From Escherichia phage NHEP29, in the sequence record PQ511150.1: 64,000 bases of DNA. One strand, written 5' to 3'. The notes beneath the pieces were generated by a model. It was not told where the DNA came from, ran no database searches, and was given only the letters and a program-made list of their open reading frames with translations. Made by a program: the position numbers and the translations under genes. Within the stretch, counting starts at the first letter, position 1. Every line of letters begins with the position of its first letter. Below are positions 3,201 to 3,245 of this stretch, piece by piece.

Positions 3201-3245
3201 TTAAGATAGAAAGATTATACTCCAACCATCCTTGGTTGTAAACTG
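3201..3245 (-). promoter_or_regulatory. PeSL early promoter (GTTTACA - stem-loop AACCAtcctTGGTT - TATAAT)
   Basis: 45 bp identical to 44611..44655; minus-strand cagTTTACAaccaaggatggttggagTATAATctttctatcttaac. Confidence 0.7.

Follow-up and report, generated by a model that had tools for sequence, protein, structure and literature searches.

Repeated promoters in the motB and nrdC regions

The 64,000-nt stretch of Escherichia phage NHEP29 DNA analysed here (sequence record PQ511150.1; hereafter the window) carries, in two regions of small accessory genes, four copies of a conserved early-promoter element whose spacer encloses a small hairpin. Megablast searches with both regions assigned the window to Mosigvirus, the RB69-like T-even phages: identity to Escherichia and Shigella phages is 96-99.5%, and the top matches are NHEP10, NHEP36, SF, PhAPEC2 and JS09. 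The first cluster of copies is located in dda-dexA-motB.1-motB-motB-motB.2 and the second in nrdC.8-nrdC.6-nrdC.5-nrdC.3-nrdC.2, the minus strand carrying all genes in both cases. The genes directly downstream of the four copies are motB, motB.1, nrdC.3 and nrdC.5 (see the table).

A 45-mer, TTAAGATAGAAAGATTATACTCCAACCATCCTTGGTTGTAAACTG, occurs exactly at 3201-3245 and 44611-44655 (no match in 100 shuffles), and the identity of these two copies reaches 49 of 50 nt when 3200-3249 is compared with 44610-44659. Its 27-nt core, ATTATACTCCA[A/T]CCATCCTTGG[T/A]TGTA, is found at four sites: 2656-2682, 3214-3240, 44624-44650 and 45632-45658. On the minus strand all four copies have the same layout, (G)TTTACA or TGTACA, a 17-nt spacer reading A/T-CCAAGGATGG-T/A-TGGAG, and TATAAT. 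The hairpin within the spacer has a 6-bp stem and a 4-nt loop, CAACCA-AGGA-TGGTTG; in the 2656 copy it reads CATCCA-AGGA-TGGATG, a compensated change from an A-T to a T-A pair. An earlier, sequence-only reading of the window had noted the identical 45-mers and the 27-bp core at 45632..45658, and the exact matches confirm both. It had also listed a diverged copy at 2653..2688, which is real (core at 2656-2682) and whose sole stem difference is the compensated pair. Other details had to be amended: TATAAT is present in every copy as claimed, but GTTTACA in two only, TGTACA standing at 2684 and 45660; the spacer does hold a stem-loop, but not a 5-bp AACCA-tcct-TGGTT, as the loop is AGGA on the minus strand and the stem has 6 bp (CAACCA/TGGTTG); and the list of copies (3201, 44611, 45630 and 2653) missed a fifth hairpin copy, described below. 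That the repeats are chance matches or assembly artefacts can be set aside entirely, given the shuffles and the recurrence of the elements at equal loci in 211 independent phage records, where a Mosigvirus genome has them at 3-4 places and a Dhakavirus genome at 1-2.

The four copies match the sigma-70 consensus at 10-11 of 12 positions with 17-nt spacing and are the best-scoring sites in their regions. They have the GTTTAC-type -35, the spacer of 17 +/- 1 nt and the TAtAAT -10 of T4-type early promoters, and each stands 5' of an early-gene orthologue. In all four, the upstream gene ends with its stop codon 0-6 nt from the -35 on one side, and on the other the Shine-Dalgarno (SD) sequence and ATG of the next minus-strand gene follow 25-34 nt downstream of the -10. 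The 25 nt upstream of the -35 are coding sequence, moderately A-rich (e.g. aaaacagcgataaaaccag) and not clearly exceeding background. Nolan et al. (2006) predicted 58 early promoters in RB69, including Pe:8387, Pe:8947, Pe:51019 and Pe:52042 (PMC1524935), and these four are the RB69 orthologues of the window copies. The orthologous sites have the GTTTAC -35, the 17-nt spacing and TATAAT in common with ours; the RB69 paper gives coordinates only, and the shared spacer, the palindrome, the hairpin and the cassette indels are not mentioned there. By their sequence, the four copies are T4-type sigma-70 early promoters, already predicted as such in the literature and presumably active, and to this extent the early-promoter assignment of the sequence-only reading is upheld. 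Unmodified host RNA polymerase would read each copy straight after infection, and each accessory gene (motB.1, motB, nrdC.3 and nrdC.5) would thereby get its own transcription start about 7 nt past TATAAT.

The fifth copy is more diverged. Its hairpin motif, at 46686-46708 on the minus strand, reads GCTTTA-CCCAAGGACGGGT-TATAAT, and the whole site (46686-46711) can be written cGCTTTA, N13, TATAAT, with a MotA box (tGCTTtA) placed upstream of the -10 as in middle promoters, where the distance is 11-13 nt. It is orthologous to the T4 middle promoter PnrdC.7, whose start was mapped at 53325 (Hinton 2010, Table 1, PMC2988021), which is exactly 7 nt past the PnrdC.7 -10. The fifth copy is a middle-promoter-like site, for which dependence on MotA is predicted. 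PnrdC.7 contains the same C-AAGGA-T-G hairpin core (TTATACCA-AGGA-TGGTATAA); however, it is a MotA-dependent middle promoter in which the 3' arm of the hairpin overlaps the -10, whereas the four other copies of the window are -35/-10 early promoters.

Coordinates of the promoter copies and adjoining genes (window positions)
Feature	Position	Strand	Details
motB_b	2170..2625	-	gene driven by the 2656-2684 copy (predicted activity)
P(motB_b), early promoter	2656..2684	-	TGTACA, 17 nt, TATAAT; hairpin variant CATCCA-AGGA-TGGATG 2665-2680; motB.1 stop codon 2688-2690; RB69 orthologue Pe:8387
motB.1	2688..3182	-	cassette gene, 164 aa, C-terminal MotB domain; promoter copies on either side, 558 bp apart
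P(motB.1), early promoter	3201..3245	-	-35 GTTTACA 3237-3243; 17-nt spacer 3220-3236; -10 TATAAT 3214-3219; predicted +1 A at 3207; hairpin CAACCA-AGGA-TGGTTG 3223-3238; dexA stop codon 3249-3251, 6 nt from -35; RB69 orthologue Pe:8947
nrdC.3	43645..44595	-	gene driven by the 44624-44652 copy (predicted activity)
P(nrdC.3), early promoter	44611..44655	-	exact 45-nt copy of 3201-3245; -35 44647-44652; -10 44624-44629; hairpin 44633-44648; predicted +1 A at 44617; RB69 orthologue Pe:51019
nrdC.5	44658..45605	-	cassette gene, 315 aa, DUF7235; promoter copies on either side, 1008 bp apart
P(nrdC.5), early promoter	45632..45660	-	TGTACA, 17 nt, TATAAT; same spacer and hairpin (45641-45656); nrdC.6 stop TGA abuts -35; RB69 orthologue Pe:52042
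nrdC.6	45661..46650	-	downstream of the fifth (middle-promoter) copy, upstream of P(nrdC.5)
Fifth hairpin copy, middle-promoter-like	46686..46711	-	MotA-box-like GCTTTA, 13 nt containing ACCC-AAGGAC-GGGT, TATAAT; between nrdC.8 and nrdC.6

A covarying hairpin in the promoter spacer

Comparison across genera showed that the hairpin core C-AAGGA-Y-G is invariant, whereas the outer stem varies yet stays complementary. In T4 the hairpin is found at P(nrdC.3), AGCCA-AGGA-TGGCT, and at P(nrdC.4), CCACA-AGGA-TGTGG. In Dhakavirus it occurs at P(nrdC.4), and Bp7 also has it at P(modA), as CAAGCA-AGGA-TGCTTG. In the Gaprivervirus VR20 it stands at P(nrdC.4) as CTTCCA-AGGA-TGGAGG, which includes one G.T pair. 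At least seven stem variants retain pairing (ACC/GGT, TCC/GGA, AGC/GCT, GCC/GGC, CCACA/TGTGG, TATACC/GGTATA and CTTCCA/TGGAGG). In a covariation alignment assembled from hairpin-positive sites, 90.7% of the cells were paired; shuffles gave 64%, and sliding the partners gave no more than 39%. Both sides vary in four of the six pairs. Alongside, all CAAGGAYG sites were counted without selection. In the window, 5 of 8 sense sites have at least three further flanking pairs, and all five of these are promoters; the remaining three have no flanking pairs and lie inside open reading frames (ORFs), and none of the three antisense sites is paired. In T4, three of five sense sites have such pairs and the single antisense site has none. 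A covariance model was run on 184.6 kb from four genera. Fifteen matches reached 24 bits or more, all of them sense-strand cassette promoters, and the next best match scored 15 bits; P(nrdC.4) of VR20, which was outside the training set, was recovered. A covarying hairpin common to T4, Dhakavirus and Gaprivervirus is the new part of this analysis and is not described in the papers searched.

The modB-modA junction shows how the motif can differ between relatives. Window positions 7100-7147 (minus strand) and positions 2495-2545 of the Bp7 sequence L004 have homologous flanks, but the spacer contains the AAGGAT hairpin in Bp7 and an unrelated sequence in the window. The combination of homologous flanks with an unrelated spacer implies that the spacer was replaced as a unit. 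Two broader searches were made: an Rfam search of the window returned no matches, and a pattern scan of IMG/VR for TKTACANNCAAGGATGNNTG returned 33 loci, of which only those on T-even contigs are real; most of the loci were rejected as chance occurrences, being non-palindromic and lacking a -10. We also observed that the loop-closing position alternates between T and C (AAGGAT or AAGGAC) in four different promoter settings from several genera: at 2665-2680, 45641-45656 and 46692-46705 of the window, at 8351-8370 of L056, at 2515-2534 of L003, and in L007.

A palindrome in a promoter spacer that is conserved across genera could also be a duplex DNA operator, bound by a dimeric regulator of these promoters. 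This is highly improbable: the arms covary rather than being conserved, the AGGA centre is asymmetric and always on the sense strand, the register relative to the -10 is displaced by several nucleotides at T4 P(nrdC.4) and runs into the -10 at PnrdC.7, and one variant pairs only through G.T. Taken together, the covarying arms, the asymmetric sense-only loop, the shifting register and the G.T pair favour a single-stranded structure over a duplex operator.

The hairpin might, alternatively, have no function. Templated correction of quasi-palindromes is a classical T4 phenomenon, and a quasi-palindrome perfected by such strand-switch mutation could have been spread by gene conversion, in line with the weak energy of the hairpin and with the sequence exchange that clearly occurs between copies (see below). 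We regard this as doubtful, since the invariant C-AAGGA core is combined with at least seven stems, in early and middle promoters of four genera between which the proteins of the flanking genes share 20-60% identity, and since the P(modA) motif, present in Bp7 and not in the window, was gained or lost as a unit.

Gain and loss of genes at the promoter copies

If neighbouring copies recombine, the intervening gene should be lost and a single promoter should remain. The predicted junctions of such recombination were built synthetically and searched as queries, a match being a continuous single piece; the INPHARED phage collection was used for these cassette searches, IMG/VR holding few T-evens (12 loci for MotB.1 and 2 for NrdC.5). 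Both predicted deletion junctions exist naturally as continuous sequence. In 21 of about 155 Mosigvirus records (~14%), including F27, G2285, AV109, AV114-118, JM10 and FL31, nrdC.6 is joined to nrdC.3 via a single promoter and nrdC.5 is absent; the nrdC.5 gene is present in 132 records. Likewise, dexA is joined to motB and motB.1 is absent in at least seven records: phi25-307 (two), NHEP36, G2285, RPN187, AV115 and AV118. At every deletion junction there is one hybrid promoter. That of F27 joins an upstream half of the nrdC.5 type (..GGAATGA-TGTACA), via the shared core, to a downstream half of the nrdC.3 type (CTTTCTATCTTAACGAGAGG). In the NHEP36 junction, GTTTACA comes from the dexA side and is followed by a TCC-type spacer and a motB-type downstream half, a structure that puts the crossover at the foot of the hairpin, in the few bases of TTTACA. 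All four combinations of presence and absence occur, with both genes in the window, motB.1 missing from NHEP36, nrdC.5 from F27 and both from G2285, and two nrdC.5-less genomes differ in haplotype just past the -10. It follows that the events recur, or that the region recombines freely.

Traces of exchange were also found between distant copies. Past the -10, P(nrdC.3) reads GAATCTATC in JS09-type genomes and CTTTCTATC in the window, where it is identical to P(motB.1). This pattern indicates sequence exchange between copies 41 kb apart, which would explain the exact 45-mer. A 41-kb deletion between the identical 45-mers would take out replication genes, which lie between them in RB69. Genome comparisons gave 95-100% identity for the intergenic promoters and 92-95% for motB.1; nrdC.5 (44658-45605), at 90-93%, is more diverged than its flanks.

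The genes next to the copies are related to each other to different degrees. motB_a (1741-2160) and motB_b (2170-2625) are tandem paralogs with 44.5% identity, and MotB.1 (2688-3182), encoded upstream on the same minus strand, shares a MotB-like C-terminal domain with them. In RB69 the motB.1 reading frame is broken into two ORFs (p013 and p012). No paralogy was detectable among nrdC.3, nrdC.5 and nrdC.6; nrdC.3 and nrdC.4 are distant paralogs, and their family is present in T4. The nrdC array differs by genus, being nrdC.5-nrdC.4-nrdC.3 in T4, nrdC.5-nrdC.3 in Mosigvirus and nrdC.5-like-nrdC.4 in Dhakavirus and Gaprivervirus, and across genera the nrdC.3 and nrdC.4 cassettes each have a hairpin promoter in front. 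The claim of the sequence-only reading that the copies flank paralog arrays is thus correct for motB_a/motB_b (44%), for the MotB domain of motB.1 and for the place of nrdC.3 in the nrdC.3/nrdC.4 family, but not for nrdC.3, nrdC.5 and nrdC.6 among themselves. Its further proposal, that the elements mediate modular gene shuffling, is supported by the natural recombinant junctions at the predicted sites, and the comparison of cassette boundaries that it had suggested places the breakpoints of both the nrdC.5 and the motB.1 indels inside the elements.

The homology of motB_a, motB_b and motB.1 and the distant paralogy of nrdC.3 and nrdC.4 would also suit a simpler history, in which the copies are ordinary paralogous promoters left by old tandem duplications and kept alike by purifying selection, and indels end there by coincidence. 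Several observations make this unlikely: (i) the identical 45-mer stands before unrelated genes 41 kb apart, (ii) the 17-nt spacer is identical although spacers are normally unconstrained, (iii) the JS09-type P(nrdC.3) differs past the -10 while that of the window equals P(motB.1), which points to ectopic conversion, and (iv) both indels break inside the element and all four combinations occur. Comparative genomics thus supports the view that the promoter repeat acts as a recombination joint: the outcome is seen in the junctions, and the mechanism can be proposed from them. As direct repeats identical over 27-45 nt, neighbouring copies would allow the very active recombination and replication machinery of the phage to cross over or slip between them. 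The intervening gene would be deleted, inserted or exchanged and one intact hybrid promoter left behind, so that the rearranged genome would stay properly expressed; distant copies would homogenise one another.

Related events are known in T4, which deletes and amplifies between 2-10-bp homologies, and in which T4 NrdC.5 counters the Dsr1 defence and host range is narrowed when a short-homology deletion removes nrdC.5 (Srikant et al. 2022, PMC9391042). The likeness is that accessory genes, T4 nrdC.5 among them, are lost via short direct repeats with effects on host range; however, the T4 events used arbitrary microhomologies in the laboratory, whereas the repeats of the window are 27-45-nt promoters and the events are found among natural isolates. 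The window nrdC.5 is a distant homologue of T4 NrdC.5 (23% identity, E = 1e-8) and carries DUF7235; one of the swapped genes is therefore a homologue of an anti-defence gene. The host-range and anti-defence genes of T-even phages lie mostly in variable regions, and how these genes are shuffled without loss of expression has only been sketched so far. The present locus is a clean natural example, in which ~155 sequenced relatives differ in whether they carry individual genes and the breakpoints fall within a repeated promoter, so that every rearrangement regenerates a promoter predicted to work.

Relation to promoter early stem-loops and possible roles of the hairpin

The sequence-only reading had matched the copies to the promoter early stem-loop (PeSL) elements of T4-type phages. 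A PeSL is a terminator-like stem-loop just upstream of a promoter, the composite order being terminating stem-loop, AT-rich tract, sigma-70-like early promoter, SD and ATG; PeSLs are repeated in hyperplastic regions, and recombination between copies gives indels and mini-circles (PMC2839356; PMC4122927). In RB49, Arbiol et al. mapped a crossover to the loop of a PeSL stem-loop (PMC2839356). Much of this description applies to the window. All four copies contain a sigma-70-like promoter (TTTACA or TGTACA, N17, TATAAT), several conserved copies (four plus one) stand in the motB and nrdC accessory regions, and close relatives differ by indels with breakpoints inside the element. As in the PeSLs of RB49/phi1, PST/T4 and nt-1/KVP40 (PMC2839356; PMC4122927), a conserved early-promoter module whose 3' end carries SD and ATG is repeated between small accessory genes in variable regions, indels of close relatives end in the module, and the proposed mechanism is recombination between copies. 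The copies differ in having no upstream stem-loop, coding sequence reaching to 0-6 nt of the -35, and in that their sole stem-loop is a weak hairpin with a conserved AAGGAY loop within the 17-nt spacer. No terminator-like site was found upstream of the -35 on the minus strand at any of the four copies. In the strict sense, they are not PeSLs, as the terminator stem-loop is missing; what stands of the earlier match is the promoter with its SD and ATG, along with the repeated occurrence, the genomic setting and the indels. Neither PMC2839356 nor PMC4122927 covered RB69-type phages, and the former does not name RB69 once; the data extend the PeSL idea to RB69-like phages in a terminator-less form.

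Could the copies nevertheless be canonical PeSLs, in which the stem-loop stops upstream transcription ahead of the early promoter? A repeated promoter with a stem-loop in variable regions and indels at the elements would be expected of them, and composites of this kind do exist elsewhere in the window (51931-51860 and 15105-15048). Yet upstream of the -35 there is nothing but a stop codon 0-6 nt away, and the spacer hairpin, with 6 bp, -6.9 kcal/mol and no U tract, is no better than shuffles, so that we consider this possibility very unlikely. The composites at 51860-51931 and 15048-15105 (minus strand) each have a G+C-rich terminator hairpin (AGCCCCTTCCGAAAGGTTGGGGCTTTTTT and GGAGACTTCGGTCTCC, respectively) directly upstream of an early promoter, SD and ATG. 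With true terminator-promoter composites elsewhere in the window, the contrast with PeSLs is internal to this genome. An exact 28-nt terminator repeat was also observed at 51904-51931 and 52527-52554, 623 bp apart; the 52527-52554 copy is followed by a late-promoter-like TATAAATA and not by an early promoter, so that one terminator is paired with two promoter classes.

Taking the three layers jointly, an early promoter, a recombination joint and a conserved hairpin with a presumed function, we put the probability of this account at about three in four. What is new in it is the covarying hairpin motif, the identity of the promoters having been predicted previously. Several points weigh against it. 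The transcription starts of the Mosigvirus copies are predictions, and the nrdC.5 and motB.1 indels would be compatible with deletion or insertion in any number of independent events. The crossover of the motB.1-less junction lies in only ~4-7 nt of identity (TTTACA), and for this reason short-repeat slippage fits as well as homologous recombination. The covariation set consists of nine distinct, mutually related sequences, the loop-closing pair is broken (AAGGAC) in four contexts, folding of each copy gave no stable structure (z-scores of -0.8 to +0.6 versus shuffles), and two copies favour an alternative pairing with the 5' untranslated region. With so weak a folding energy, the evidence for the hairpin comes from covariation and not from energy. 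As to function, Bp7 and T4 P(nrdC.4) lack GGAG behind the stem, and cleavage by the endoribonuclease RegB (considered next) or binding of a protein to the hairpin would be conjecture.

Lying upstream of the start of its own promoter, the hairpin can exist as RNA only in read-through transcripts from upstream genes. Our preferred guess is that it would act in such RNA as a processing or insulation signal at cassette boundaries; the main alternative is a role as single-stranded DNA, as a recombination hotspot. RegB cuts GGAG/U in intergenic regions of early transcripts, and RegB alone cleaves a small RNA efficiently if GGA is unpaired and the fourth nucleotide constrained (PMC3014915). The hairpin presents A-GGA in its loop, with a paired U coming next; beyond the stem, most copies have GGAGUAUAAU, and GGAG is often found there. 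The RegB-type tail GGAGRAYARAA is matched at about 4 of 7 positions, and U is replaced by C in several variants. The loop context may thus fit the reported RegB target, though imperfectly, and cleavage is at this point a guess. In its general form, the proposal is that the hairpin is a dedicated cis-signal bounding exchangeable accessory and anti-defence cassettes in at least four Tevenvirinae genera, acting either as RNA (through RegB or another RNase) or as extruded or single-stranded DNA (through a structure-specific recombination nuclease, endonuclease VII or gp46/47). We advance it tentatively, as a long shot. If it were true in the RNA form, cleavage would leave each cassette expressed only from its own promoter; in the DNA form, the promoters would be programmed recombination hotspots and not passive homology, and the NHEP36 crossover at the foot of the hairpin, like the RB49 crossover in the loop of a PeSL, is to be noted beside this alternative. 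As the motif with its compensatory evolution is also found in the model phage T4, in a mapped promoter, its function is directly testable there.

Three other readings of the hairpin sequence were considered. The 3' arm contains an AUG that could open a mini-ORF (AUG GUU GGA GUA UAA); this was rejected, because the distance from SD to AUG is about 0 nt and Bp7 and T4 preserve neither frame nor length. TGCTTG of the Bp7 variant was dismissed as a MotA box for its wrong distance to the -10, and nothing was found in support of restriction or methylation sites (CCWWGG, GGATG).

In T4, the e, soc, 49 and I-TevI genes have promoter-embedded hairpins that sequester the ribosome-binding site and fold only in read-through transcripts (PMC3014915). 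The likeness to the copies is that the promoter lies in or beside the 5' arm of the hairpin, a design shared by several other early promoters of the window. In contrast, the hairpin of the four copies is self-contained: it closes within the spacer, its 3' arm contains neither SD nor AUG, and it does not pair with the downstream SD or AUG, so that the four are not of the sequestering type. Within the general habit of placing hairpin arms in promoters, the AAGGAY hairpins form a separate family whose members are self-contained. Inverted repeats with the 5' arm inside the promoter are enriched in the window: over 25 early-promoter-like sites preceding minus-strand genes, the best repeat per site measures 6.9 bp on average, compared with 5.1 +/- 0.2 bp in shuffled sequence. 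Early promoters with the -35 at 1735, 14642, 56167, 59459, 51891 and 47295 (minus strand) have a spacer arm of 8-14 nt that is the perfect complement of a downstream arm. At the first five of these, the downstream arm takes in the SD of the gene that follows; there the ribosome-binding site could be hidden in read-through transcripts but not in promoter-proximal ones. At 47295 the pairing is AGGTCTAT/ATAGACCT, which stops short of the SD sequence.

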